DNA from: Bacteroidota bacterium
GTDB lineage: Bacteria; Bacteroidota; Ignavibacteria; UBA10030; SZUA-254
DNA: 64,000 bases
Direction of reading: 5' to 3'
NCBI GenBank assembly: GCA_044449065.1
Contig: JBIOHP010000002.1
Span: 117,462 to 181,461, forward strand
This document shows positions 32,542-47,115 of this stretch, piece after piece. Both the position numbers and the translations under genes were made by a program. Every line of letters starts with the position of its first letter. Within the stretch, counting starts at the first letter, position 1. The notes below the pieces were generated by a model. The model saw nothing but the letters and a program-made list of their open reading frames with translations, had not been told where the DNA came from and searched no databases.

Positions 32542-32828
32542 TTTTTGACCTATATCACAAATTATCGATAAATTTATCCGTACATTCTTTCTATGAACAT
32601 CACAGCCATGCAACGCATATGGCATATATTGATGAGTTTGATTTATTTACAAGCGCGTTTTTGAAGGGAAACGCTTCAATTCCGATAAAGGTGAGTTGAG
32701 TTGTTATTGGTTAAAAGAACAGGGGCGACTCATCCCGTCATGCGAAAAAAGTATGGCGGGACTTTTTTATTTCCCGCTTAACGTAAAATAAAACCTATTC
32801 TTACAATTTCCGGCACCCTGTTCTTCTA

Positions 32829-32950
32829 ACAGGATGCTGAAAAACCCGAACCGAGTCACCCTGAACTTGTTTCAGGGTCTGAATGTGAACAGATTCCGAA
32901 ACAAGTTCGGAATGACTCACTCCAATTTGATACTTTTTCAGCATCCTGCT
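32829..32950. repeat. Approximately 120-bp palindromic intergenic repeat element, copy 1 (REP/MITE-like), two internal hairpins plus a terminal stem
   Basis: AGGATGCTGAAAAA...GAGTCACCCTGAACTTGTTTCAGGG...TTCCGAAACAAGTTCGGAATGACTC...TTTTTCAGCATCCT. About 85% identical to the copy at 39406-39530. Confidence 0.7.
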
Positions 32951-34274
32951 AATGTTTTTTCCCCAGCAGTTTCTTCACCCGGTCGCGATGATTGATATTC
33001 ACCCGGTATTGGATATGGACGCAATTGCCCTCATACGTTTTATTGATTATTTCGACCTCACCATGTAACCGGGCTATTGTTTTATATTCCGACTGGGGAA
33101 TGGTAATTTCTTCAATGATCGAATCTTCATTGAGGATATTCTCAATCATTGCGACCAATCCTGATACATTAATATTCCGAGCCGCTGAGATTATCACGGA
33201 CGGATTATAACGAGTGGTGATATCCTGCACTGCTGAACGATCCGCAACCGCATCGATTTTGTTGAATACAAAGATTGTGGGCTTATCTGCGACCTTCAGT
33301 TCTTCCAGCGTTTGCCGCACAACTTCAATATGTTCGGTAAATTGGGGATGACTTACATCCACCACATGGAGAAGCAAATCCGCCTCTATAACTTCAGTCA
33401 ACGTGCTTTTAAATGATGCAACCAGCGTCGTCGGTAATTTCCGTATGAAACCAACGGTATCGCTCAATAAGATCTTCTTACCGGAAGAAAGGGAAACCTT
33501 TCGCACCGTCGTATCCAGGGTTGCAAATAGCCGGTCTTCAACCAGCACGTCCGCATTGGAAAACAACTTTAGCAACGTCGATTTCCCGGCATTCGTATAC
33601 CCGACTAATGCGACCCGAACAAGATCAGATCGGCGGTTCCGTTGTACATTCCGTTCAAGTTCGATACCGTGAAGTTTCTCTTTTAAAAGACTTATCCGTT
33701 TACGGATAGCTCTCCGGTCAGATTCAATCTGTGTTTCGCCGGGACCTTTTGTTCCCACGCCCCCGAATTGTTTCGATAAGTGAGTCCATTGCCGCGTGAG
33801 CCGCGGCAGCATATATTGCAATTGTGCAAGCTCCACCTGGGTCATTGCTTCTTTCGATTTCGCGCGGAAGGCGAAAATATCTAAAATCAATCCGCTCCGG
33901 TCAATAATTTTGCATTTAATGTGTTTTTCAAGATTCCGGATTTGAACCGGCGAGAGATCGTCGTCAAAAATTACCATGCTGATGTTTTCATCGGCAACAA
34001 GCTCCCCGATTTCTCTTGCTTTTCCGCTTCCGATGAAGGTCGCTGCGTCCATGCGATCACGTTCCTGCAATATCATATGCTGAACCGCTGCGCCGGCGGT
34101 ATCGGCTAACCGTTTGAGTTCCTCAAGATATTCCTCGGCATGTTCACGGGTTTGTTTCCGTCGCACCAGCCCGACAACAATAGCAGTCTCCGGTTTTGCA
34201 GTATCTTTTGAACGGGCGATTTCTCTCCGCTCAGGTTTTAGGGTCTCGATACTATCTTCATTAATCTTACTCAA
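32949..34274 (-). CDS. hflX: GTPase HflX
   Basis: G1 motif VALVGYTNAGKSTL, DTVG, NKID, and the HflX N-terminal domain pattern (IFDDDLSPVQIRNLE). The maximal ORF starts at ATG 34364 but overlaps the upstream gene by 94 bp. TTG at 34274 preceded by GGAG, forming a TTGA overlap with the upstream stop, is proposed as the start. Confidence 0.8.
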   Translation of the reverse strand: MSKINEDSIETLKPERREIARSKDTAKPETAIVVGLVRRKQTREHAEEYLEELKRLADTAGAAVQHMILQERDRMDAATFIGSGKAREIGELVADENISMVIFDDDLSPVQIRNLEKHIKCKIIDRSGLILDIFAFRAKSKEAMTQVELAQLQYMLPRLTRQWTHLSKQFGGVGTKGPGETQIESDRRAIRKRISLLKEKLHGIELERNVQRNRRSDLVRVALVGYTNAGKSTLLKLFSNADVLVEDRLFATLDTTVRKVSLSSGKKILLSDTVGFIRKLPTTLVASFKSTLTEVIEADLLLHVVDVSHPQFTEHIEVVRQTLEELKVADKPTIFVFNKIDAVADRSAVQDITTRYNPSVIISAARNINVSGLVAMIENILNEDSIIEEITIPQSEYKTIARLHGEVEIINKTYEGNCVHIQYRVNINHRDRVKKLLGKKH

Positions 34275-36469
34275 GCAGGCGCTTTCTCCTTCTCCCGGCT
34301 GTCGTGGGCAATGATCATTTCGATGATGACGAGGAGGAGACATAACGCCAGCAAATATTTCCACAACTCAACGCCGAACCGTGACTGGAGCACCGTCGTT
34401 TGGATTGCTGCCGCCTGGTCGACTGATGGAATGATTTTCGGTTCTATGCCTTTTTTCTTCCAAAACTCTTCCATGGCGCCTAAAGACATCTTGCGTGTAT
34501 CCGATTCGCGGCTATCGATATTAACATCGAAGACGGAAAGGAGAACGCTCCCGCTTTTCAGATCGTAGAAACCCGGCACGATTACATGCGGTTTCACGAA
34601 TGTAAGACTCCCGATAGGCAGGAGATTTCTCGGCGATCCTTCTGAAGTAATTTCTTTCAATTTATTCTCATTTGTTGGGACCATTAATTCCTGCGTGCCA
34701 TCGGGAGAATAGAGCGTGTATTTTGTTTCTCCGGTTACTTCTGTCGGTTCAATTGAGATAATGGCGTCCTGCCCGGTAAGATATGATTGATTAACTGCCG
34801 GATGTGCGCCGAGGTATAATACGGAGCGATAAATCAGGGGAACGAAAATCCCTTTGAGCGGAAAATCAGACCAGGAAAGCACGGGTGAAACTGAATAAAA
34901 GAGAATTTTTCCGCTGCCGAGCGTATGTTCCGAAAGAAAGGACATTCCATCGGTCTGCGAAATAATTACATGGCTATTCACGCCGACTTGCCGCTGAAGC
35001 GACCGGAGAATCGCGGGCGATTCGATTGTACGCTTATCGCCGTTAAATCCCGGCAACGTTTTATCAAAAATTGTATTAAATAACGGATGATCAAGATCGA
35101 TTTTCTGGAATGAAACCGAAGAATTCGCATTTGTATTTCCGGTTACTCCCGCAACGGACGGAACAGCAAGAGAGGGAAGAAATTCCGCGTTGAACTCCCC
35201 TTGTTGAAATGCTGACGACGGAAAAATTATAACCCCGCCGCCATGTTCAACAAATTCTTTAATACTCTTGAAACCGATACTCGATATTCCCTTGGTATTC
35301 ATGATTATCAAAACGTCGGTGCGCTTTAAATCGACAGTTGGAAATTTATCCGAAGTTACTTGTTGAACATTGACCAATGACTGAAGCGAATCTGCCCTGC
35401 CTGCTTGCAATGCCAGGGCAGGAAAATGAGCATCACCAGGATTATCGGCAACGAGCGCAACATTGATCCGTTCGGGAATCGATAATGTAAAATACCGCCG
35501 GTTATCCTGTTCCAAGGCGTCATTTTCAGTTTCAACATACCCCTTGATTAACCCGGCATGTTTAGGAATTACCTTCAAGATGACTGTTGCCGTCCCCCAC
35601 GGATCGATACGCACGCTTTGCTGGGCAGCCCGCGCATTTTCAAGGTATCCGCTTACTACATAATTGGAAACGGGGGTGGGGGTAAAATTTCTGATGATTG
35701 CGCTGAGCTCAACCGGCTTGCCGACTTCCAGAATTTTGTTTAACACCTCAACAGAATCGATACCGATATTATCAATTTCTTTTGTGCCGACTTCGACTAA
35801 AAAAAATCTGTTCGGAGAATTCGTATTGTCCGCACTATCCTTGGTGGTGGAAGTAAATAACGTTCGCTGCATATCCGAGATGATGTAGACCTCTTTATTG
35901 GCATTCTTCGATTTGGCAAGAAGTCTTTCGGCTGTGCGCGCCGCTTCATCGATTGAACGGGTAACGCTGGTGATATTCGACTCGCGGATGAGCGTTCTGA
36001 GAGCGCTAAAATCGTGCGTTGCAGGATCGATAGTGGCATTCGGCAAATCGGATAGCTTGATAAGATATACTTCATCGCCCTGGTTCAGCACATCGATGAT
36101 TTTTTCCGTTTTATCTTTCGCCTGCTTAAACAACTCGCCGTACTGATCGCTTCCGGTCATGCTGAATGAATCATCAAAAATAATCGCGACGGATGAATGG
36201 GCATTCGCGCCTAATTTTCCAAAGAGCGCCCCTCGTAAAGCCGGTCTCGCAAATGCAAACACTAAACACAGGACTATCAACGTCCGCACAAGAAGAAGCA
36301 GCCACTGACGTATTTTTAACCGGCGGATTTTGGTTTGCTGTAATTCTTTCAGAAACGAAAGCGTGCTAAACTCTATCGTTCGTAACTTCCGTAAGTTGAG
36401 TAGATGAAGAATAACAGGAATTGCCGCAGCGACTAACCCGAACAGAACGAGCGGATTAAGAAATGTCAT
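34271..36469 (-). CDS. VWA-domain membrane protein with an N-terminal double-TM domain (BatA-like aerotolerance-family architecture)
   Basis: N-terminus MTFLNPLVLFGLVAAAIPVILHLL (characteristic double-TM N-terminal domain). VAIIFDDSFSM (VWA MIDAS-like DxSxS). C-terminal TM. Confidence 0.55.
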   Translation of the reverse strand: MTFLNPLVLFGLVAAAIPVILHLLNLRKLRTIEFSTLSFLKELQQTKIRRLKIRQWLLLLVRTLIVLCLVFAFARPALRGALFGKLGANAHSSVAIIFDDSFSMTGSDQYGELFKQAKDKTEKIIDVLNQGDEVYLIKLSDLPNATIDPATHDFSALRTLIRESNITSVTRSIDEAARTAERLLAKSKNANKEVYIISDMQRTLFTSTTKDSADNTNSPNRFFLVEVGTKEIDNIGIDSVEVLNKILEVGKPVELSAIIRNFTPTPVSNYVVSGYLENARAAQQSVRIDPWGTATVILKVIPKHAGLIKGYVETENDALEQDNRRYFTLSIPERINVALVADNPGDAHFPALALQAGRADSLQSLVNVQQVTSDKFPTVDLKRTDVLIIMNTKGISSIGFKSIKEFVEHGGGVIIFPSSAFQQGEFNAEFLPSLAVPSVAGVTGNTNANSSVSFQKIDLDHPLFNTIFDKTLPGFNGDKRTIESPAILRSLQRQVGVNSHVIISQTDGMSFLSEHTLGSGKILFYSVSPVLSWSDFPLKGIFVPLIYRSVLYLGAHPAVNQSYLTGQDAIISIEPTEVTGETKYTLYSPDGTQELMVPTNENKLKEITSEGSPRNLLPIGSLTFVKPHVIVPGFYDLKSGSVLLSVFDVNIDSRESDTRKMSLGAMEEFWKKKGIEPKIIPSVDQAAAIQTTVLQSRFGVELWKYLLALCLLLVIIEMIIAHDSREKEKAPA

Positions 36470-36646
36470 AAACCCCCGTTGAAATCAATAAAGCATGGAA
36501 TATCATTGATTAAATGACAGAAAAAAACGGGTGAAAAGCAAGATGATTCTTGATGGATTATTCTGACAAATGAACCAAAATTCCCAAAATTCATATTGCC
36601 TTTTCAGCCAAAGTTTCTTACATTGTATTCGCTTAAGTTAAGTCAT

Positions 36647-36721
36647 CGGGATGTAGCGCAGCTCGGCTAGCGCGCCTGCCTTGGGCGCAGGAGGTCCCGG
36701 GTTCAAATCCCGGCATCCCGA
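36647..36721 (+). tRNA. tRNA-Pro (anticodon TGG)
   Basis: Cloverleaf folded by hand: acceptor CGGGATG/CATCCCG, D-arm GCGC/GCGC, anticodon stem CCTGC/GCAGG with loop CTTGGGC (anticodon UGG), T-arm CCGGG-TTCAAAT-CCCGG, discriminator A. CCA is not encoded. Confidence 0.85.
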
Positions 36722-37016
36722 CTATCGTTGTATTTATCGAGACGACAAAAACTCAAGATGGTGACGCTTCTTAATATCTCGAAAACAACCTGAGTGATGC
36801 AACCCACATCGTATTGTGTATGCTATCGGGAGGGGAAAGTGTAAAAATCAGCGTCTATTCTGACATTTTCCGGTAACTCCCAAAGATTAAACGCAGGTCA
36901 GTATTACCGGTCACCTTCATTCTTGCTTTTATTCTGCGTTTTCGTTAATTTGGCACACGTACTTACAATTAAACTATTTTTAAAATTATGATTACAATAT
37001 CACAGAAGGAGAATCC

Positions 37017-37385
37017 ATGCTAAATCAACGCAGCATTCTTGTTGTGGATGATGAAGAAGCTCTTCGCACTGTTCTGAGCAGTGAACTTTCCAGCGAGGGG
37101 TATAATGTTGATACGGCGTCGGACGGCGACGATGCGATCGCGGTCCTCCAGGGCAAACAATTCGACCTTGTTCTCCTTGATATTAAGATGCCGCGGGTTG
37201 ACGGATTTGAAGTTTTGAAATTCATCAAAAAAGGTACCCCCCAGATTAAAGTTATCATGCTCACGGCGTTTGCAGACCTTAAAAATGCCATTGAATCCAA
37301 GAAGCTCGGAGCGGAAGATTTTATCAGCAAACCGTACGATCTTGTCGATCTTTTAACCACCATCGAACGCGTGCTTAGCGAATAG
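37017..37385 (+). CDS. Single-domain response regulator (CheY-like receiver)
   Basis: ILVVDDEE...D...LLDIKMPRVDG...K receiver motifs. 122 aa. Confidence 0.8.
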   Translation: MLNQRSILVVDDEEALRTVLSSELSSEGYNVDTASDGDDAIAVLQGKQFDLVLLDIKMPRVDGFEVLKFIKKGTPQIKVIMLTAFADLKNAIESKKLGAEDFISKPYDLVDLLTTIERVLSE

Positions 37386-37418
37386 TTTTTACCGCGATCG
37401 AAGGAGACCGGAGAAGTT

Positions 37419-38759
37419 GTGCCGCAACGTTACAACATTTTAATTGTAGATGACGAGGCGTCATTTACCGAAATCCTTCGAGAAGAGCTCCAGGAGGAAG
37501 GTATCTATGAAGTCGATCTCGCGTTCGACGGCGTGGAAGCGATCAATCTCATCCAGAAAAAATTATATGACGTAGTCCTCCTCGATATTAAAATGCCGCG
37601 GGTCAGCGGCATTGAAGTTTTGCAATTCATTCAAGAACATTCTCCCTCTTCCCAGGTTATCATTCTCTCCCAGTTCGCCGATGTAAAGATGGCGGTTGAA
37701 ACCACCAAGTTAGGCGCATACGAGGTGCTGGGGAAACCGTACGATTTCGATCAGGTGGAACAAACAATCCACCGCGCTATCGACCGGAAAAAGCTTGCCA
37801 TCGATAATACACTGATGAAGACGGAGCTTTCCCGGAAAGCCGGCACGTTTGAGATCATCGGGAAAAGCCCGCGTATCCAGCGCGTCATGATCGACGCCGA
37901 AAAAGTTGCCGATAGCGAATCCATCGTGCTTATCACCGGAGCAAGCGGCACCGGTAAAGAACTCATCGCCCATTTAATCCATGATCGGAGTCCCAGACGG
38001 TCGCGTCCGTTCGTGCCCGTAAACTGTTCCTCCATCCCCGATACGCTTTTAGAGAGCGAATTATTCGGTCATGAGAAAGGCGCATTCACCAATGCATATA
38101 CCGCCAAGCCGGGTTTGGTTGAAGTTGCAAACGGCGGCACGCTCTTTCTCGATGAAGTTGGCGATATAAGTCCGGTGATTCAACCGAAGCTGCTGAGGTT
38201 TTTGGAAACGGGAGATTTCAGGCGCGTCGGCGGCACCAACGAATTGAAAGCGAATGTGCGCGTAGTGTCCGCGACCAATAAGAACCTCCAGGAAGAAGCA
38301 AAAGCCGGAAGATTCCGCGATGATCTTCTCTACCGGTTGAATGTTATAACGATTCTCATTCCCACGCTGAACCAGCGCCTTGAGGATATTCCTCTGCTGG
38401 TGGATTTTTTCCTTCAGAAAAAATCCAAGCTCAGTGCGCCAAAACGCGTGAGCGAAGAAGCGATGAAATCCCTCATGTTGTATGAATGGCCCGGGAATAT
38501 ACGGGAGCTGGAACATGTTATCGAACGCGCTATAATTTTATCGACCGGCGATCAGATTGAGATTACCGATCTCCATCTCACAAACAACGGAAGCATCGGG
38601 GCGCCCGCCGATCTTTCACTCGACGAGCTTGAGAAACAGCATATCGAGAAAGTTCTTAAACTCTTCGGCGGAAACCGCAAACAGACATCTGAGGCGCTCG
38701 GTATAAGCCAGAAAACTCTCTACCTGAAAATTAAGGATTATAAGATACAGGTAGATTGA
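37419..38759 (+). CDS. Sigma-54-dependent Fis-family transcriptional activator (NtrC-like: receiver + AAA+ + HTH)
   Basis: Receiver domain, Walker A GASGTGKE, GAFTGA-type motif ESELFGHEKGAFTNA, Walker B LFLDEVG, C-terminal Fis-type HTH (QTSEALGISQKTLYLKIK). Confidence 0.85.
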   Translation: MPQRYNILIVDDEASFTEILREELQEEGIYEVDLAFDGVEAINLIQKKLYDVVLLDIKMPRVSGIEVLQFIQEHSPSSQVIILSQFADVKMAVETTKLGAYEVLGKPYDFDQVEQTIHRAIDRKKLAIDNTLMKTELSRKAGTFEIIGKSPRIQRVMIDAEKVADSESIVLITGASGTGKELIAHLIHDRSPRRSRPFVPVNCSSIPDTLLESELFGHEKGAFTNAYTAKPGLVEVANGGTLFLDEVGDISPVIQPKLLRFLETGDFRRVGGTNELKANVRVVSATNKNLQEEAKAGRFRDDLLYRLNVITILIPTLNQRLEDIPLLVDFFLQKKSKLSAPKRVSEEAMKSLMLYEWPGNIRELEHVIERAIILSTGDQIEITDLHLTNNGSIGAPADLSLDELEKQHIEKVLKLFGGNRKQTSEALGISQKTLYLKIKDYKIQVD

Positions 38760-38857
38760 TACTCCATTAACCGATTTATCATTTTTTCAACATAGGTCGA
38801 ATTCCTATTGATATTTTCCAGTTTGTGCATTATATTAAAACGCTCTACTGATATAAC

Positions 38858-39397
38858 ATGCAGATTAAAACCGGAAAAAACATAAAAATTCTACTGTCGC
38901 TGTTTTTCGTTCTCATCCTTATCACGGGAGAGACGGCATTTATTTCCTTCACAACGATTTTCCAATCGACAGCGCATCAGAAAATCGCTGAATCTGTACG
39001 CGAAGGATGCGAGTCCTCCTCCATTGTTCAACTCTGGTATGACCCCCGTGAACCGGAAAATCAAATGATCGTAAGAAACGAAGATCAAACCGTGCTCTGG
39101 GAGGGAGTCGCATATTCAATTGTTTCCATCATTCCGACCTCGGAAGACATTCTTTATCTATGCATGACGGATAACGGCGAAACTTATGTTGAATCCACCG
39201 GCACGCGTTTTTCACCGCAGCACCCCGATCCGATAAAAAACGGATTGAAGGGAAAAGTACTTCTCGGACAATTTATCCAACTCGATGAGATTGTGAGCAT
39301 TCACTGCCCCTATAATGGCGAGCTAACCGCCCCCGCTCACCCGCGGCTGCAAAGCTTCTACCCCGAAATCTCTCCACCCCCTCCCCGTTTAAGTTAA
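38858..39397 (+). CDS. Hypothetical secreted protein
   Basis: 179 aa with an N-terminal signal/TM segment KILLSLFFVLILITG. No motif recognised. Confidence 0.4.
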   Translation: MQIKTGKNIKILLSLFFVLILITGETAFISFTTIFQSTAHQKIAESVREGCESSSIVQLWYDPREPENQMIVRNEDQTVLWEGVAYSIVSIIPTSEDILYLCMTDNGETYVESTGTRFSPQHPDPIKNGLKGKVLLGQFIQLDEIVSIHCPYNGELTAPAHPRLQSFYPEISPPPPRLS

Positions 39398-39405
39398 TAA
39401 ACACG

Positions 39406-39530
39406 GCAGGGTGTTGAAAAACCCTAACTCGAGTCACCCTGAACTTGTTTCAGGGTCTGAACGCTTACAGATTCCGAAACAAGTTCGGATTGACTCATTC
39501 CAATTCGAGACTATTTCAACACCCTGCTAG
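39406..39530. repeat. Palindromic intergenic repeat element, copy 2 (same family as 32829-32950)
   Basis: AGGGTGTTGAAAAACCC...GAGTCACCCTGAACTTGTTTCAGGGTCTGAA...AGATTCCGAAACAAGTTCGGATTGACTCA...TTTCAACACCCT. Terminal stems differ from copy 1 by compensatory changes. Confidence 0.7.
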
Positions 39531-39696
39531 AAGGATTTACGCCAAAAGGATAGCGTTTATCCTTTCTGGCAGTGTTACACAGTCTGTGTGAAAGGTCGTC
39601 ATTGCGAGTCCCGTCATTCTTTTTGACGGGACGTCGCAATCTCCTCACATCGATGTAAATTGCTGAGAATTGATGTTGTCCAAAAAATATTAATCG

Positions 39697-39790
39697 CTTC
39701 TCTGAGTCATCCCGAACTTGTTTCGGGATCCAAAAATTGGTGACTATAGATGCTGAAACAAGTTCAGCATGACTCACCGAACTCAGGGAA
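39697..39790. repeat. Palindromic repeat element, copy 3 (core only, diverged)
   Basis: CTGAGTCATCCCGAACTTGTTTCGGGAT...GATGCTGAAACAAGTTCAGCATGACTCAC. Both internal hairpins are retained with compensatory substitutions relative to copies 1 and 2. Confidence 0.55.
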
Positions 39791-39826
39791 GTATTTTTGT
39801 TAACAAAATTTTTACGGAGAATAAAC

Positions 39827-40693
39827 ATGAAACCTTTAATAATTATTACATTTTTAATTTTATGTTCAATCCCTGCACTCGCGCAGCAGCGGGATACATC
39901 GCAGGTGGTGCTGCCACCAATAACGGTTACGGCGTACAAAGAGAACCAACCCATCGGTGCATATAAACAACCGGAATGGACCACCCGCCGTCGTTTCCCT
40001 ACCACGAGAGTGTATATCCAGACGCAACCCGGTGAAGCCGAGTTTGAGCAGTGGGTTGAAGTGCGTGAGGAAAAAGCAAGCGCCGGCGGCGCCAAGAAAG
40101 CGCGGATTTCACAAGAACTGGAATTCGGGCTTGGAGCGCATACGCAGCTTGATATCTATATGAACAGCATCAGGTACTGGGATGGACAGGCGTCATCCTT
40201 CAATTCACGGGGATGGTCGGTTGAAATGCGCTGGGCGCTTGCCGATTGGGGCTCGCTTCCGGGCAACCCGACTCTCTACTTCGAATACTCAACGTTCGAC
40301 GCAGTCAATGGTGACGAAGACCAAGGGTACGATAAAATCGAACCGAAACTCCTTCTTGGAGGAGAGTTGGGAAACCTCTGGCATTGGGGTTTGAACATCG
40401 TAACGGAACGCGGGTTAGCGCCCGCCGATTATCGTGATGAAGAATATGTTGTCACCGGCGCTGCATCCTATATCGTCGCGGATGAATTATTTTCCATCGG
40501 ACCGGCGTTTCAATATAAATATGAGATAGGCCGAGCGACAGGCACACCCAACTGGCGCACCCATTATTTACTTGGACCCACAATGCAATACCGTCCTGTA
40601 AAACGCGCCTTCCTCGATGTTGAACCGCTCTTCGGCGTCACCGATCAATCGCGCTTGCTCGATATGACAATTGTTTTTGGGTGGACGTTATAA
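39827..40693 (+). CDS. Hypothetical secreted / outer-membrane protein
   Basis: Signal peptide MKPLIIITFLILCSIPALAQQ. Aromatic-rich, with alternating hydrophobic C-terminal strands consistent with a beta-barrel. The start is placed at 39827 rather than the ORF-track start at 39797. Confidence 0.45.
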   Translation: MKPLIIITFLILCSIPALAQQRDTSQVVLPPITVTAYKENQPIGAYKQPEWTTRRRFPTTRVYIQTQPGEAEFEQWVEVREEKASAGGAKKARISQELEFGLGAHTQLDIYMNSIRYWDGQASSFNSRGWSVEMRWALADWGSLPGNPTLYFEYSTFDAVNGDEDQGYDKIEPKLLLGGELGNLWHWGLNIVTERGLAPADYRDEEYVVTGAASYIVADELFSIGPAFQYKYEIGRATGTPNWRTHYLLGPTMQYRPVKRAFLDVEPLFGVTDQSRLLDMTIVFGWTL

Positions 40694-41134
40694 ATGGAAG
40701 AATGAGAGGTCGCTCCGAAAATAGATAAGTCTTTTGGGAGCAACCTCTTGGAGTTTAATGGTGAGGGAACGTTGATATTCAATCCTGCCTGTTTTTTAAA
40801 CCTATCGAATTCGATGGGTTTAAAAAGAGGTTTTTGGATTTTGCTATTTCTTTGAATATACCAAGATTTAATCTCTCACAAATTCCTTAAAATCGACGTA
40901 TATTCAACAATATTTTGATTTTCATTAAATTTTACTTGACAAAATCTTGATACTTTCGTAAATTCTTAAGTATTTTTGCAGGGTATAATCGATACATGCA
41001 CTTTGTATCGATGGGGTTATACATTCATTTAAATAATTTCACTTAATGGCGAGTACGCTTTTTTAGGATAGGGATTATTTCATTTCGCCATAAAAAATAT
41101 TTTAAAATTCTTTCAAAAAAATTAAAGCAGACAT

Positions 41135-41302
41135 ATGAGCACATGTAAGGAATGTAAAGGTAAAGGTTCCGCACAATGTCCAAAATGTCATGGGACTGGG
41201 CGTCTTGGAGGTGGAATATTAAGTTCATCATATCAATGCAACAATTGTAATGGTTCCGGCAAGGTAAAATGCGGCGTTTGCAATGGTAAAGGTAACATTT
41301 GA
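41135..41302 (+). CDS. Mini zinc-ribbon protein with four CxxCxGxG repeats (DnaJ cysteine-rich-domain-like), 55 aa; missed by the ORF track (under 60 aa)
   Basis: MSTCKECKGKGSAQCPKCHGTGRLGGGILSSSYQCNNCNGSGKVKCGVCNGKGNI read directly. Four evenly spaced CxxCxGxG motifs. First gene of the AT-rich island. Confidence 0.5.
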   Translation: MSTCKECKGKGSAQCPKCHGTGRLGGGILSSSYQCNNCNGSGKVKCGVCNGKGNI

Positions 41303-41762
41303 AGTCAATGAAATAGTTAGGAAAATATTTTTGAAAATCGAAGAAATAATTAAATATTTAAAATCTCGTTATACGGCTAATTTTCGTCAGGATTCACCTA
41401 CTTATTGGAGAGTAGAGGTAATGACAACGGAAGGGCGATCACAAGTTGTACATTTGATATACAAGAAAATAATTTTGGCGGGCCAAGATTTATCGAGGCT
41501 GATTGCTGAGAGTCCCATAGGACCTTTATACAAGCACTTCAATTATGAAACCATTTTGAGGAAAAACGCGGAATTAGATGTAGGGGCAATATGCATTGAA
41601 GATCTTAAAAATGAAGAAAATTTATTTGTTTCCTACTTGACCCTCCGCTCAACTCATCTTGTGCCAACTGCTGATTATGAGGAGATACAAGAATTGATAG
41701 AGAAAACAGCTTTTGTCGCTGATCAATTAGAGAAAGAGATTTATGCAAGAGACTATCACTGA
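41283..41762 (+). CDS. Hypothetical soluble protein (island gene 2)
   Basis: 159 aa ORF. The start overlaps the last 20 nt of the zinc-ribbon ORF in another frame. No motif recognised. Start uncertain. Confidence 0.4.
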   Translation: MVKVTFEVNEIVRKIFLKIEEIIKYLKSRYTANFRQDSPTYWRVEVMTTEGRSQVVHLIYKKIILAGQDLSRLIAESPIGPLYKHFNYETILRKNAELDVGAICIEDLKNEENLFVSYLTLRSTHLVPTADYEEIQELIEKTAFVADQLEKEIYARDYH

Positions 41763-41784
41763 ATTCTTATAAAAGGAGAATATC

Positions 41785-42801
41785 ATGTTTCGCTATCTTT
41801 ATTTTTTCATTCGATTTCGTCAATATTTTAAAAATGACAAAGGATTATCCGAATTTGCAGACAGATGTCTGAACTGGTTAATCGAAAAATCTGCCATAAA
41901 AGCTGGAATTTATATAGAAAAAAACGAAGAACTCAAAGATGAGAAAAAAAATCTAATTTTACGTAGTGAAGATATAAATAAAAAGGCAATGCTCGAAAAT
42001 GATGATTTTTTCACTGTGAGAAAGAAATATCGTACACAAACTTTTATTATTGGAGTAATAATAATCGCAGAAATGTTTTTAAATTACATTTCAACACTTA
42101 TTTTCATCAACGGGGAAGATTTGATCTTCACCTTCATACGATGGGGAATTGCAATTGTATTAACTGGTGGCGGAATTATTGTATCGGAGAAATTGATCGA
42201 ATCAGTCTTGCCGATAACAAAAAAGGAAAAAAAAGATATTCCAAACAGATCTACCCCAGTTATTATATTGTGGTCAATTTTACTCATAGGGGTTGAAATA
42301 GCCATAATGGGAGTTTCAGAAACTAGAGCAACCGATATTGAGGGTGGCCATACCGGTGGTGTGTTGTATTATGGGTTCATTATACTTTCAATGGTATTGC
42401 CTCTTATTGCAGGTGCGGCTCGATGGGATATTATGCATTATTTAGATGCGTATAAAAATACACTCTTACATCGAAAAATTCAGGAGAGATTGCATAAAAT
42501 AGAGACGATACTACGAAGAAATGAAGAACATAAGTTGCAATATTTTAAAATTCAAAGTGTAGTATTCTGGGACATTTTCAGCGAATTTAAGACATTTAAA
42601 GAAAACTATGACAAGAAGAAAGGACTGAAAACCGAAGATCTATCTTCTCATTTTGCCTGTAACAATGATACATTTCAACTCGAAGCCGATAAGAGATACG
42701 AGAAGGATCCTCGCACACATTCCGCAAGTCATATTCAAAAATTGACAATATCTGATAAATCTGTTGGAGATAAAATTGGACAATCAGCCTTTCAGGAATG
42801 A
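41785..42801 (+). CDS. Hypothetical membrane protein (about 4 TM central block, soluble N- and C-terminal parts) (island gene 3)
   Basis: 338 aa. Hydrophobic segments FIIGVIIIAEMFLNYISTLIFI, IAIVLTGGGIIVS, VIILWSILLIGVEIAIMGV, VLYYGFIILSMVLPLIAGA. RBS GGAG 8 nt upstream. The stop overlaps the next start (ATGA). Confidence 0.5.
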   Translation: MFRYLYFFIRFRQYFKNDKGLSEFADRCLNWLIEKSAIKAGIYIEKNEELKDEKKNLILRSEDINKKAMLENDDFFTVRKKYRTQTFIIGVIIIAEMFLNYISTLIFINGEDLIFTFIRWGIAIVLTGGGIIVSEKLIESVLPITKKEKKDIPNRSTPVIILWSILLIGVEIAIMGVSETRATDIEGGHTGGVLYYGFIILSMVLPLIAGAARWDIMHYLDAYKNTLLHRKIQERLHKIETILRRNEEHKLQYFKIQSVVFWDIFSEFKTFKENYDKKKGLKTEDLSSHFACNNDTFQLEADKRYEKDPRTHSASHIQKLTISDKSVGDKIGQSAFQE

Positions 42802-43664
42802 GGTTTGAGAGATTTATGAGCAAGATAATAATTTGTTACTTAGGTGTTTTGCTGATAGGCTTTTCCATCCTAAATATTGGATGCCAAACCAAGATTGATA
42901 GACGTTTGAATTGTATATGTTTGATTGATTACTCTGGCAGCCTGAGCGATGAAACGCTTCAGAGGTATATACACATTATTAGTTCTGATGTTTTGTCAAA
43001 TTTGAACATCAAGGACCGTTTAATAGTTTTGCCAATCGATGAAGGAGCAAAGACAGAAGCTGTTAAACTAGTCTATGAGGATTTCTCTGAAAAAAAATAT
43101 TCTAAAACATCGGATGGATTCACACACGCTAGCGATAGCACAATGAAGCGATTTCATGATTATCTTGAGCAATTAAAACCTCAACTTATGATCCAATTGG
43201 ATTCACAAAAAGTCGTTCGCAGTAAATTCACATACTTTACTGATATAATGGCAGCATTGGAACAGTCAGAAGGGTTATTGGAAACAAATGAAGAAGATAA
43301 TTTTACAACGATTTTCAACAGATTTATTACCGGGCGCAATAAATTGGTTTCCGAAAATGTAATCATCCTTTTTTCAGATATGATTCATGAATCAAGTGAG
43401 TATAATTTTAATAAACCCAACGGCTGCGATTCCAAAGAGGCAAGCTCAATTATTAACAATCTCGTCCAAAATAAAAGAATGCCAAACTTGAAGGGAAGTA
43501 AGATATTTGTTGATGGACGAACTGGACATTCGAATCGTATGGTCGAAAACATACGATCATTTTGGAGCAAGTACTTTAAAGAATCTCATGCAGACCTCAT
43601 TGCTTATGATTTCGATATTGGCAATCAAATTGTTTCATTTTTAAATAATCAACGAGTTAAATAA
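42798..43664 (+). CDS. Secreted or lipoprotein with a von Willebrand factor A-like domain (island gene 4)
   Basis: Signal peptide ending ...LIGFSILNIGC. MIDAS-like LIDYSGSLSD (DxSGS). Later VIILFSDMIHE resembles the VWA iiLlTDG strand. An alternative start is at the second ATG, 42816. Confidence 0.5.
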   Translation: MRFERFMSKIIICYLGVLLIGFSILNIGCQTKIDRRLNCICLIDYSGSLSDETLQRYIHIISSDVLSNLNIKDRLIVLPIDEGAKTEAVKLVYEDFSEKKYSKTSDGFTHASDSTMKRFHDYLEQLKPQLMIQLDSQKVVRSKFTYFTDIMAALEQSEGLLETNEEDNFTTIFNRFITGRNKLVSENVIILFSDMIHESSEYNFNKPNGCDSKEASSIINNLVQNKRMPNLKGSKIFVDGRTGHSNRMVENIRSFWSKYFKESHADLIAYDFDIGNQIVSFLNNQRVK

Positions 43665-44022
43665 GTTTTACGTAAAAGTGTGGAAAATAGATTGAACGTT
43701 TTGATTTTTTGTAAAAATAGATTATTCCGAAATAGCCCATTTAATCATAACTTGAGCTCTCTACTATATGAAATCATACTTCAAATGCAATCTATTTTTT
43801 TACCCCATTAGTAACAGCATTGCAAAAATAGAAAAGGGGAGTGGATCGACATCAACCAAATTCATTAAGAATTATTGATCGATGCATTGCAACAATAGTT
43901 TAATATACCGAAAGTAAGCAATCCCGTCACATTCAAGGAAATATAGAGGCCGACTCCATCTCGTTTTCAAGAACTTCGGGCGATACAATCTCTTTTTAAT
44001 CGCCTTTCCTCTTGCACTTTCT

Positions 44023-44745
44023 GTGGGTATCCTCAAAATATTCTTTCATTACCAGGGATGGGAGCCATTTGTTTTTTCACTTTCTCCATTTTTTACGAGC
44101 GTTTTAACTGGTATTGTTTTTTTGATAGGATTCATTCTTGCGGGGGTAATGACGGATTATAAAGAATCTGAAAAAATACCGGGCGAGATCTTGACTAGTC
44201 TCCAGACTATCTGGCTCGAGACATCGTTAATACACAAGAAAAATCCGCCAGCGGCGATGTCCTTGCGCAAGAAAGTTGTGGAATTTACAGCAATCCTGCA
44301 AACTGATTTTCTCGTGCGACGGGAAGAACGAACAGCCTTCCAGTTGCTCGACTCATTCTCCGAAGAATTTGAACTATTATACGATACTCTTCCACCCCCC
44401 TTTCTAGTCCGGTTAAAAAATGAACAAGCTGCTCTAAGGAAACTTCTTGTGCGAATCAAGGTCATACGCGATACGCACTTCTCTCACAACGTATATTTCG
44501 TAATCAAAAGTACGGCTGCTGGATTCGTTACCGGATTGCTTCTGTTAAAAATGGAACCGTTCGCGGAAGGTATATTTTTTCTCTGTCTATATGTTTATAT
44601 GTTAGTTTCCGTTATTATATTAATTAGGGATATGGATGATCCGTTTGAATATTCGGATAACATTGAAAAAATTGATGAAATTGATTTTAAGATACTGTTT
44701 GACTATGCACAGAATTTAGGTAACAAAATAGCGTTCGATGACTGA
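44023..44745 (+). CDS. Hypothetical membrane protein (2 N-terminal + 2 C-terminal TM helices around a soluble helical domain) (island gene 5)
   Basis: 240 aa. GTG start (no in-frame ATG/TTG upstream back to the stop at 43915). No motif recognised. Confidence 0.4.
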   Translation: MGILKIFFHYQGWEPFVFSLSPFFTSVLTGIVFLIGFILAGVMTDYKESEKIPGEILTSLQTIWLETSLIHKKNPPAAMSLRKKVVEFTAILQTDFLVRREERTAFQLLDSFSEEFELLYDTLPPPFLVRLKNEQAALRKLLVRIKVIRDTHFSHNVYFVIKSTAAGFVTGLLLLKMEPFAEGIFFLCLYVYMLVSVIILIRDMDDPFEYSDNIEKIDEIDFKILFDYAQNLGNKIAFDD

Positions 44746-44822
44746 CCGGTAATTCACTAATGTATAGCAAACAATGATGTGATTTCTTCATTCCTCCTCG
44801 ATAAGGAATTTTAATCTAAGTA

Positions 44823-45536
44823 ATGCGAGAAATAATAGATGGACTCAAAGAAGGATTTCAATTTACAGTAACTTTCCACCCACACCTTGAGTTAGATAAA
44901 GTGCTTCTCGGTACTTCTGGATTATCGAATTTTCTAATTCTGATGACATTAGGCGGTTTGATAGCGGCTATTTATTTTTCAGTTGAACAATCGAAAATTA
45001 TTGAAAGCGTTCCATTCGGAAAGCCGGGCTTTGTGACTGCACTTGCATGTCTTGCGTTAGCGTGGTCCGGTTTAGCCTCTATCGCTTTGACTTTTTTTTA
45101 CATCATAGGTTCACTCACTGGTTGTTTAATAGGAGTCCGCAATGGCACGCTGCTCCGCAGGAATATCTTCTTTGGGGTTTCGATGCTCGCTGGTATTTTT
45201 ATAGGAGGAATCCTCATCGTTTTAGCACCAATAAATTTAGGAAAAACGGTCCAGCTTATCATACTTTGTTGGCTTGCGTGGGATATGGTACAAGAAGGGC
45301 TTCGAACAATTAATATGGAACGTTTTTATCATCTCTATATATTCTTGATGATAGGAGGAGCCATTTCGCTGGTTTTTTTTGACCCAAAAATTTATTGCCT
45401 ACTGATCGTTAAGGCATCAGAGACAACTTCGATGCGAATTGTTTATACCGATGGCTTCAAGAACCTGATGATTGCTTTTTCCTATACTCCAATTTTAGGT
45501 TGGGTTATCGGATTTTGGAACGAAAAACCATATTGA
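44823..45536 (+). CDS. Hypothetical polytopic membrane protein (about 6 TM) (island gene 6)
   Basis: 237 aa, strongly hydrophobic throughout. Confidence 0.4.
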   Translation: MREIIDGLKEGFQFTVTFHPHLELDKVLLGTSGLSNFLILMTLGGLIAAIYFSVEQSKIIESVPFGKPGFVTALACLALAWSGLASIALTFFYIIGSLTGCLIGVRNGTLLRRNIFFGVSMLAGIFIGGILIVLAPINLGKTVQLIILCWLAWDMVQEGLRTINMERFYHLYIFLMIGGAISLVFFDPKIYCLLIVKASETTSMRIVYTDGFKNLMIAFSYTPILGWVIGFWNEKPY

Positions 45537-45714
45537 GTACATTTTTTCATTCTTTTTTTAAACAAATTTGTTCGGAAATTAGATGGTAACGATAATTATT
45601 TCAAAATTTTTTATCCTTGACAATCTGTACTTTTTCCCAAGGGAAAAACCTGCCTGCCCAAATTTGTTTGACTTTCCCCCTAAAATTTCGTAATTTTTGA
45701 TACTTTTTAACATC

Positions 45715-45752
45715 AAACGCCCTGAAAACAACTAATGACAGGGCGTTTTTTC
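45715..45752 (+). terminator. Rho-independent terminator (9-bp stem AACGCCCTG/CAGGGCGTT followed by TTTTTT)
   Basis: Perfect stem with a 15-nt loop and a T6 tract, read directly. Lies at the right edge of the AT-rich island. Confidence 0.6.
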
Positions 45753-45823
45753 TATTAAAGAATTTTGCTATCGGTCAATGGAAACGTTCCGATGACTGTA
45801 CTCTACCTCCCCTCGCTCCGCGT

Positions 45824-45847
45824 CTCCCCTCCTCAATCGAGGAGGGG
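45824..45847 (+). repeat. Perfect 10-bp GC-rich hairpin TCCCCTCCTC-aatc-GAGGAGGGGA (member of a recurring CTCCC/GGGAG hairpin motif)
   Basis: Read directly. A similar hairpin (ATCCCCTCC-n6-GGAGGGGAT) occurs at 47138-47161. Confidence 0.5.
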
Positions 45848-45945
45848 AAACCAGCAGAGAGGTGTGGTCGGAATCAAAAGAGAGCGTTTCATAAAGACCA
45901 TAATATTCATAGTTAACCGTTTAACATTATTGGAAGACCTCCCGG

Positions 45946-47115
45946 ATGACGAAATTTCAAGGCGTCGATTATTACAGTCTCGATGACAATCTGAGCGAAG
46001 ATGAAATTTTAGTTCGGAACACCGTTCGCGAATTTGTCGACGACAATGTCCTGCCGGTCATTGAAAAGCAGTATCGCGCCGGCGCCTTTCCCATGAACCT
46101 GATCCCCACAATGGGCGAGCTTGGGATGTTCGGCTCCACCCTGCCCGCGAAGTACGGCTGCGCCGAAATGAACAACGTCGCCTACGGCCTGGTGATGCAG
46201 GAGCTGGAGCGCGGCGATAGCGGCGTGCGCAGTTTCGCCTCGGTGCAAAGCGCGCTCGTGATGTATCCCATTTTCACCTTCGGATCGGAACAGCAGAAAG
46301 ATTACTGGCTGCCGAAACTCGCCACGGGCGAAAAAATCGGCTGCTTCGGATTGACCGAACCCGATTACGGCTCTAACCCCGGCGGCATGATCACGCGAGC
46401 CGAAGAAAAAAGCGACGGCTACCTCCTCAACGGCGCGAAGATGTGGATCACCAACGGCACACTTGCGGATGTCGCGGTTGTCTGGGCAAAACTCAACGGC
46501 GTCGTGCACGGCTTCCTCGTAGAAAAAGGCACCAAAGGATTTTTAGCTCCCGAAATGACAGGCAAACACTCGCTCCGCGCTTCGGTGACATCGGAATTGA
46601 TTTTCCAGGATTGCCTCATTCCCAAATCAAACATTTTCCCCAAGACAGAAGGATTGAAAGCGCCGCTCATGTGCCTGAACCAGGCGCGGTACGGTATCGC
46701 ATGGGGAGTAATCGGTTCGGCGATGGCATGTTACGACTCTGCATTGAACTATGCCAAGTCGCGCATACAATTTGGGAAACCGATAGCGGCATTCCAGATC
46801 ACGCAGGAAAAACTCGTTCAGATGATATCCGAAATAACGAAAGCGCAGCTCCTTTGCCTGCAACTTGGGAGATTGAAAGATAAAGGGAAACTCCGGTTCC
46901 AGCAGGTATCGATGGCGAAACGGAACAACGTTCACCAGGCGCTGGAGATCGCGCGCGTGGCGCGGGAAATTTTAGGGGCGAACGGCATCCTCGACGAGTA
47001 TCCCGTCATGCGCCACATGGCAAACCTCGAATCGGTAAAGACGTACGAGGGCACGCACGAGATGCACACGTTAATCATCGGCGAAGACATCACCGGTATC
47101 CCGGCGTTTATGTAA
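45946..47115 (+). CDS. gcdH: Glutaryl-CoA dehydrogenase
   Basis: Acyl-CoA dehydrogenase fold with near-collinear similarity to GcdH ([19 protein letters not shown]...I.GE.ITGI.AF). Confidence 0.8.

Follow-up and report, generated by a model that had tools for sequence, protein, structure and literature searches.

The closest described relatives of the three palindromic elements considered here, which lie in a 64,000-nt stretch of the genome of a Bacteroidota bacterium (Ignavibacteria; UBA10030; SZUA-254; assembly GCA_044449065.1, contig JBIOHP010000002.1, positions 117,462 to 181,461; hereafter the window), belong to two groups of short hairpin repeats, which have been described separately. 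The first group comprises the repetitive extragenic palindromes (REPs) with a CGTC tag, whose stems of 8–9 bp start with an A-T pair and are followed by loops of 4–5 nt and a short tail. They occur mostly as inverted dimers, which often are heterodimers and in some cases are nested in longer palindromes (Di Nocera, De Gregorio, Rocco, BMC Genomics 2013, PMC3733652). CGTC-tagged REPs have been found in Proteobacteria, Chlorobi, Bacteroidetes, Spirochaetes, and Thermotogae, where they are located downstream of open reading frames (ORFs) and sometimes supply the ORF ends. Besides CGTC, the tag variants TGTC and CCTC were named; the tail has the 3-nt consensus CCA, and the repeat dRS3 was classified as CGTC-1 (PMC3733652).

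The second group is defined by its enzyme. In Neisseria the NTS (CGTCATTCCCGCGMAVGCGGGAATCYRG, part of dRS3) flanks ssnA, a 94-aa GIY-YIG gene (Chenal et al., Nat Commun 2025, PMC11893778). The product SsnA (cd10448) binds this hairpin only in single-stranded DNA and on just one of the two strands, and its cut falls a few nucleotides upstream. Cutting depends on the three bases that precede the palindrome, and the base with the greatest importance for binding is the C that immediately follows it; the identity of the loop is not essential for the Neisseria enzyme. Binding and nicking of such hairpins were shown for four Ssn proteins, the characterized members bind single-stranded DNA and not RNA, and Ssn-related motifs (SRM) are found on the flanks of thousands of ssnA homologs. 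The insertion sequence (IS)-like layout NTS-ssnA-NTS and the analogy to REPs and their REP-associated tyrosine transposases (RAYTs) were noted by the authors themselves (PMC11893778).

We consider it probable (about 0.78) that the window elements are inverted hairpin pairs of this known CGTC-REP/SRM-Ssn class and represent gene-less relatives of the SRM-ssn-SRM cassette. In all six hairpins of the window, here termed half-sites, GTC precedes the palindrome and C directly follows it, which is the same frame as in the NTS around the gonococcal gene (GTC, A-stem(8) loop(5) stem-T, C in the window; CGTC, ATTCCCGCG MAV GCGGGAAT, C in the NTS). Further shared traits are the hundreds of extragenic copies and the placement of hairpins on both sides of a GIY-YIG gene of ~95 aa. 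The dimensions of stem and loop and the inverted-dimer, multi-copy, extragenic layout (three pairs in 64 kb) match the CGTC-tagged REPs; an 8-bp stem with a 5-nt loop fits CGTC-2, by description only, and the H. neapolitanus consensus GCTT-GAAAaACC..GGTaTTTCgAAGC resembles the window sequence GCTGAAAAACC..TTTTTCAGC. There are, however, differences to both groups. The window tag AGTC is not among the named variants, and the tail reads C-T/C-N instead of CCA. The stems (A[T/C]NC[T/C]GAA) are richer in AT than the tested Ssn substrates and enclose a CTTGT loop that hardly varies, and the hairpins form heterodimer pairs nested in an outer palindrome, with no ssn gene in the 64 kb. Most hosts come from Bacteroidota and related lineages (Ignavibacteria-like, Calditrichia, Chlorobiaceae), besides spirochaetes and others, rather than from Proteobacteria.

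Three inverted hairpin pairs in the window

A search of the window with the pattern GAGTCAYCCYGAACTTGTTTCRGGRTC, in which ≤3 mismatches were allowed, retrieved six oriented 27-nt half-sites, compared to 0.00 in shuffled sequences. They have the form GAGTCA-NNNN-GAA-CTTGT-TTC-NNNN-TC and constitute three inverted pairs, with the tags pointing outward and the tails facing each other. A covariance model built from 150 half-sites and run over the 64 kb without filters recovered exactly the same six (44–51 bits, E 1e-10 to 1e-13). As the next-best match, the opposite strand of the same hairpins, scores only 10.6 bits, the motif is oriented. All three palindromic elements reported by the first-pass annotation are thereby accounted for, and an additional hairpin was recognized between the second and the third:

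32827–32951, no strand assigned: element copy 1, 125 nt, consisting of the outer inverted repeat (32827–32844 / 32934–32951) and, inside it, the hairpin pair with linkers of 10 nt on its left and 17 nt on its right; outer stem TAACAGGATGCTGAAAAA / TTTTTCAGCATCCTGCTA, 18 nt, 94% complementary
32853–32879, plus strand: half-site 1a, GA-GTC, ACCCTGAA CTTGT TTCAGGGT, C; 8-bp stem, 5-nt loop; 49.0 bits
32892–32918, minus strand: half-site 1b, GA-GTC, ATTCCGAA CTTGT TTCGGAAT, C; 49.8 bits
39406–39527, no strand assigned: element copy 2, 122 nt; outer repeat GCAGGGTGTTGAAA (39406–39419) / TTTCAACACCCTGC (39514–39527)
39431–39457, plus strand: half-site 2a, identical to 1a; 49.9 bits
39470–39496, minus strand: half-site 2b, GA-GTC, AATCCGAA CTTGT TTCGGAAT, C; 7/8 pairs; 44.2 bits
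39598–39641, plus strand: seventh hairpin, GTC, ATTGCGAGTCCCGTCA TTCTTTT TGACGGGACGTCGCAAT, C; long stem with one bulge, between copies 2 and 3
39697–39790, no strand assigned: element copy 3, 94 nt; two paired hairpins, 18 nt apart, inside a short outer stem (39698–39707 / 39781–39790)
39704–39730, plus strand: half-site 3a, GA-GTC, ATCCCGAA CTTGT TTCGGGAT, C; 47.7 bits
39749–39775, minus strand: half-site 3b, GA-GTC, ATGCTGAA CTTGT TTCAGCAT, C; 50.9 bits

An 8-bp stem starting with A...T and a 5-nt loop are present in all six half-sites, five of which are fully paired, and the tag base before GTC is A throughout. Since the stem of half-site 1b differs from that of 1a, the pair in copy 1 is a heterodimer. 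The inner stems are CCCT/AGGG, TTCC/GGAA, TCCC/GGGA, and TGCT/AGCA, and every change between them is compensatory, just as they had been read initially, with one correction: the hairpins of copy 2 were placed properly, but the right half reads GGATTGACTC rather than GGAATGACTC, which leaves 7/8 pairs. Copy 3, which had been described as a core only, also possesses the outer stem listed above. The complementary loops CTTGT and ACAAG pointed out by the first-pass annotation do exist, but are a trivial outcome of the inverted-repeat arrangement, and a kissing-loop interaction deduced from their complementarity was dropped for this reason. Copies 1 and 2 share 86% identity over 112 nt. Between their outer palindromes of 14–18 bp, two base pairs have changed on both sides in a compensatory manner (from A-T to G-C and from C-G to T-A).

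With the hairpin at 39598–39641, seven hairpins of the window match the frame GTC, A...T, C, compared to 0–2 in shuffled sequences. No stem identical to that of the seventh hairpin was seen in the fetched loci (see below). The spacer at 39406–39790 is a small mosaic cluster of hairpins that share this frame.

Stem covariation and the selected hairpin

A scan with GAGTCANNNNGAACTTGTTTCNNNNTC, restricted to one genome per species, yielded at least 108 motif stretches, around which 8-kb loci (L001–L108) were fetched. The hosts among the matches listed include many families of Bacteroidota, Balneolaceae, Calditrichia, Chlorobiaceae, and Ignavibacteriales, and further Treponema, Gastranaerophilales, Elusimicrobium, a Curtissbacteria metagenome-assembled genome (MAG), and some Proteobacteria, although this list may be inflated by binning errors in MAGs. 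At the four stem positions that the search had left free, 435 of 452 cells in 113 sites form Watson-Crick pairs, compared to 307±7 (maximum 330) after shuffling of the 3′ arms, and three of these positions show two or three pair types each. In a 150-sequence alignment (A2), 98.7% of the cells pair and four of the eight pairs change on both sides; this alignment was partly selected for pairing, and the search-free positions provide the cleaner test. The comparison with shuffled arms extends to other genomes what the first-pass annotation had proposed for the window, namely extragenic palindromes resembling REPs or bacterial interspersed mosaic elements (BIMEs) with compensatory stems. Across phyla, the loop CTTGT and the inner stem GAA/TTC hardly vary. 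The invariance of GTC was demanded by the searches themselves; in other genomes, many partner halves have a C in front of it.

Which structure is maintained can be read from the arrangement of the halves. Of 225 family half-sites in ~0.89 Mb, the arrangements comprise 61 convergent (tags outward, spacer 2–51 nt), 22 divergent, and 3 tandem cases. At the variable stem positions of the convergent pairs, pairing within the halves is retained in 482/488 cases, but pairing between the halves in 348/488 only. The stems of the two halves differ in 60 of the 61 pairs; the same stem in both was found once, compared to 8.7 expected occurrences (P ~1e-3, with shared ancestry ignored). Because pairing is kept within the halves and the halves carry different stems, the selected unit is the local hairpin and not one long hairpin. 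The half-sites are also strongly extragenic, as only 34 of the 225 (15%) lie inside long open frames, while such frames cover 86% of the bases.

The hairpin-associated GIY-YIG gene

Clustering of the ORFs in the 108 loci revealed one small family that recurs beside the hairpins. Its members are single-domain GIY-YIG proteins (PF01541, 89–130 aa), and a profile search detected 12 copies or remnants in 10 of the 108 motif-selected 8-kb loci and one more in the metagenome loci, giving 13. In the ten that were mapped (nine complete genes and the metagenome copy), a forward hairpin is located 25–60 nt before the start codon, and in several a reverse hairpin follows just after the stop or overlaps it. 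This order of hairpin, ssn gene, and reverse hairpin has the same orientation as the gene-less pairs of the window, and it is on the basis of this identical orientation that we regard the window pairs as gene-less relatives of the cassette. A protein-first sample obtained by profile search gave a matching picture: a GAA-CTTGT-TTC hairpin was present within ~120 nt upstream in 4/4 distinct genes and also downstream in two of them. The flanked proteins are 42–47% identical over their full length to a 94-aa N. gonorrhoeae ORF that is surrounded by nine exact NTS copies, and the residues Y6, Y17, and E64, which were mutated in SsnA (PMC11893778), are invariant in the joint alignment. The gonococcal sequence that serves as the bridge was taken from two complete N. 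gonorrhoeae chromosomes of ~2.17 Mb (NZ_CP119140.1, locus L110, and NZ_CP119142.1), which are mislabelled as plasmids in a plasmid collection.

Several details of the cassettes were observed in passing. Reverse hairpins often overlap the 3′ ends of ssn genes: in L038 (5996–6012) an ATAAA loop variant of such a hairpin supplies the TAA stop, and in L082 (1518–1541) the protein ends in the hairpin-encoded residues ..DPETSSG. In L159 and L160 (1384–2060), hairpin pairs flank an ssn gene on either side, and the whole is situated between the hsdR-like gene and the methylase gene of a type I restriction-modification locus; these two contigs are otherwise near-identical and differ by one extra hairpin-pair unit.

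If the characterized Ssn proteins are a guide, each half-site of the window would, in single-stranded DNA, form a separate hairpin with a stem of 8 bp and a loop of 5 nt, to which a small single-domain GIY-YIG nuclease would bind, as can be inferred from the four Ssn proteins in the literature. Such an enzyme would read the stem, the GTC on its 5′ side, and the C on its 3′ side, and would nick the DNA a few nucleotides upstream. The window elements could then be viewed as non-autonomous forms that are related to the SRM-ssn-SRM cassette but lack its gene, in analogy to REPINs and RAYTs. Their hairpins would be recognized by a cognate Ssn, and the pairs may derive from or depend on an ssn cassette, with Ssn taking part in their spread. 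The loop and the inner stem are nearly fixed although the loop is inessential for the Neisseria enzyme, which may point to a distinct Ssn subfamily that travels with its own hairpin.

Several points weigh against this interpretation. GIY-YIG nucleases make no covalent intermediate, so that a transposase-like role would be hypothetical; recognition of these substrates by the Ssn subfamily described here would follow from homology. The loci that revealed the association were chosen by the motif, and the protein-first check comprises four genes of one subfamily. No GIY-YIG gene was found by profile search in the 64-kb window or in its syntenic relative L109; a profile search that returned thousands of small GIY-YIG proteins gave no Ignavibacteria label among the best 120, a result that is silent on the window lineage. 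The published SRM motif HGTCWYN(0-2)YYVSBRHN(0-5)WNVSBRGN(0-2)RNCYNB has 0 matches in the window and 0 in L001–L108, because it demands a G/C-rich inner stem; the window variant thus falls outside this motif, which is a search device and not a biochemical definition. Finally, the predicted minimum-energy single-strand fold of copies 1 and 2 is one long imperfect hairpin instead of two local ones (z-scores of −4 to −9 for the three copies). The two hairpins enclosed by a closing stem that the first-pass annotation had envisaged correspond to the minimum-energy fold of copy 3, but not to those of copies 1 and 2.

Insertion, unit of copying and alternative explanations

Copy 1 abuts the stop codon of hflX (CTA at 32949–32951, minus strand; gene at 32949–34364, minus strand), and a suhB-like gene follows downstream of it. 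Copy 2 starts 9 nt past the stop of an ORF at 38858–39397, and copy 3 is located just upstream of an ORF at 39797–40693. The next named relatives of the window HflX are Ignavibacteria. Three relatives (L109, L154, and L155; HflX 80–84% identical) lack copy 1 at the orthologous site, where the hflX stop is directly followed by a conserved hairpin AAAAATCCCGNCATGG..CCATGNCGGGAT and then by GTCGCCCCGTTCTCTAATCC. The window contains ~185 extra nt at the 3′ end of hflX, copy 1 included, beyond which the conserved hairpin is found:

32733–32761, no strand assigned: conserved hairpin TCCCGTCATGCG..GTATGGCGGGA that follows the hflX stop in the relatives and is displaced by ~185 nt here; context, outside the element

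The C-terminus of the window HflX reads ..LLGKKH before the stop, compared to ..ILGKLQVAGEEQK in the relatives. Its new TAG stop lies inside the outer repeat of copy 1, and downstream the former stop region GGGAAATAAAAAAGTCCCGCC can still be recognized. With an empty site at the 3′ end of hflX in three relatives, copy 1 is an insertion in the last hflX codons that supplies a new stop codon; exact insertion junctions and a target duplication are not resolvable at this level of HflX divergence. This empty site, together with the similarity of copies 1 and 2, supports the miniature, non-autonomous behavior that the first-pass annotation had suspected. Regarding the displaced hairpin itself, a T-run is present on the plus strand, antisense to both flanking genes, and an A-run precedes the hairpin on the hflX strand.

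The proximity to gene ends raises the question of whether the hairpins are selected at the RNA level, as a 3′-UTR (untranslated region) stabilizer, a terminator, or a small RNA. The strong covariation would agree with a structured RNA, copies 1 and 2 begin 0–9 nt after stop codons, and stabilization of upstream mRNA by REP-type hairpins is established and has been argued in the literature on CGTC-tagged repeats, too (PMC3733652). However, the motif occurs beside unrelated genes in many phyla and, as pairs, in both orientations, the stems are not followed by a U-run, and the hairpins bracket a nuclease gene whose characterized relatives bind single-stranded DNA and not RNA. Rfam contains no relevant counterpart either: a search against Rfam 15 at gathering scores returned tRNA-Pro as the sole match in the window, and permissive thresholds added weak matches far below gathering, mostly to models of microRNA-precursor hairpins. 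We therefore consider a primary RNA function unlikely, if still the most serious of the alternatives. The first-pass annotation had allowed for either an RNA or a DNA structure; of these, the DNA hairpin is favored because single-stranded DNA is the sole substrate of the known partner (PMC11893778), and an effect on mRNA 3′ ends may be added as a secondary consequence of insertion.

A different origin would be that of an ordinary MITE (a miniature transposable element bounded by terminal inverted repeats), derived from an IS with a DDE transposase, in which the outer palindrome would provide these repeats and the inner hairpins would be carried along. Copies 1 and 2 indeed share outer repeat and linkers as one 122-nt unit, and elsewhere outer inverted repeats of ≥12 nt enclose 20 of 60 pairs, compared to 3/60 in controls with mismatched partners. 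Linkers in other genomes show the same asymmetry (~8–11 and 17–20 nt) as those of window copies 1 (10 and 17 nt) and 2 (11 and 17 nt). The 20 outer arm sequences are all distinct, however, many being of the type GAGGCTGTCYAAAAAG, and many pairs and single hairpins lack an outer repeat altogether. A metagenome scan for the exact CCCT/TTCC core identified 43 loci. The outer stem of copy 2 recurs in one of them (L146), whereas other loci contain quite different outer palindromes around the same core. As the same core sits in differing outer palindromes, it is the core, and not the ends, that constitutes the conserved module; within a lineage, the whole ~120-nt unit is what gets copied. Inspection by eye of copies 1 and 2 and of L146, the three copies of the window type, revealed no usable target-site duplication (CTA recurs at the right end, but seems to be part of the repeat), and clustering of the ORFs in the loci detected no recurrent transposase. 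Such an origin is accordingly very unlikely.

Two further observations concern hairpins in other genomes. In a Prolixibacteraceae MAG (OY781961.1; L068, 6283–7945), a tandem array of four units of 292–315 nt (93% matches) is present, and every unit includes two divergent hairpins separated by a conserved spacer of 31 nt (GCTTCGAACAGCAACAAACCATGATCA). The array contains no GIY-YIG coding sequence and resembles the mosaic arrays of Neisseria or of BIMEs. Other hairpin variants of the same frame occur near the family and near ssn genes (L109, 5040–5100 in minus-strand view; L030; L084; L157), for instance GTCACCCCGAGCGGAGTCGAGGGGTC and GTCATCCCGATGAAGATCGGGATC, and suggest that several hairpin types coexist in one genome.

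The first-pass annotation had proposed mobilization by a RAYT encoded elsewhere, that is, by an enzyme of the IS200/IS605 Y1 family acting on REPINs or BIMEs. The resemblance is considerable, since the elements, being short palindromes outside genes that are paired in inverted orientation and keep an unpaired tag and compensatory stems, look like REP doublets, and a protein gene bracketed by the same hairpins and action on single-stranded DNA are common to both systems. Yet the tag is GTAG in those elements and AGTC or CGTC here, and the enzymes have different folds and chemistries, with a covalent intermediate in the case of Y1 transposases and none in that of GIY-YIG nucleases. Using E. coli RayT as the single query, from which very distant Y1 enzymes could escape, no relative was detected in the window or in ~1.2 Mb around copies, whereas Ssn-type GIY-YIG genes occur 13 times there. 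The gene that is repeatedly bracketed by the hairpins is a small nuclease of the Ssn family and not a tyrosine transposase, and no tyrosine transposase gene flanked by CGTC repeats was found in the earlier survey (PMC3733652). We regard a RAYT as the partner of these elements as highly improbable.

Double-stranded operator sites for a dimeric DNA-binding regulator, which the dyad symmetry with conserved GAGTCA...TGACTC ends might recall, can practically be dismissed, as variation preserves pairing inside the halves and not symmetry between them (482/488 and 348/488, respectively), the spacer ranges from 2 to 51 nt, and the sites follow genes rather than sit at promoters. Integron attC sites, dif/Xer sites, CRISPR repeats, IS200/IS605 ends, and intrinsic terminators were rejected on their core motifs, since a GTTRRRY core, regular spacing, or a U-run are missing. 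A full-text literature search with the hairpin sequences retrieved unrelated papers only, and one that combined GIY-YIG with REP terms gave no match.

The surroundings of the elements contain further features. While copy 1 lies between the suhB-like gene and hflX as first annotated, copies 2 and 3 are not immediately beside the AT-rich island, which starts near 41000, ~1.2 kb to the right of copy 3. This stretch (41000–46000) has a GC content of 0.33–0.40, compared to ~0.45 elsewhere, and contains five consecutive plus-strand ORFs (41283–45536) with no Pfam match. It may be an island, and no link to the hairpin elements was found; a tRNA-Pro gene (36647–36722) is located 4.3 kb to its left. 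A 141-nt direct repeat with 71% identity (37101–37241 / 37506–37646) in the adjacent response-regulator genes at 37017–37385 and 37419–38759 probably reflects paralogous receiver domains.

With the assignment proposed here, the CGTC-type repeats of Bacteroidota and its allied phyla, for which no partner was known in 2013, would be connected to the Ssn nucleases reported in 2025. It is possible, but in our view doubtful, that the heterodimer pairs, whether or not an outer palindrome encloses them, are true non-autonomous mobile elements and that an Ssn-type GIY-YIG nuclease, working on single-stranded DNA, copies or moves them in trans. If so, a partnership like that of REPINs and RAYTs would exist in many phyla with an enzyme that is not of the HUH type, and the rule that paired stems differ would be part of the mechanism, for example by providing two distinguishable ends or by avoiding a perfect long palindrome. 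As the published SRM motif misses a very widespread AT-rich variant, surveys of Ssn and SRM would undercount these lineages. The genes and hairpins described here are candidate enzyme/substrate pairs with the new specificity GTC-A[T/C]NC[T/C]GAA-CTTGT, which may be of use should Ssn enzymes be developed into tools for single-strand DNA. In genome annotation, the elements would be treated as repeat insertions that are able to alter gene ends, as at hflX, and not as regulatory RNAs.

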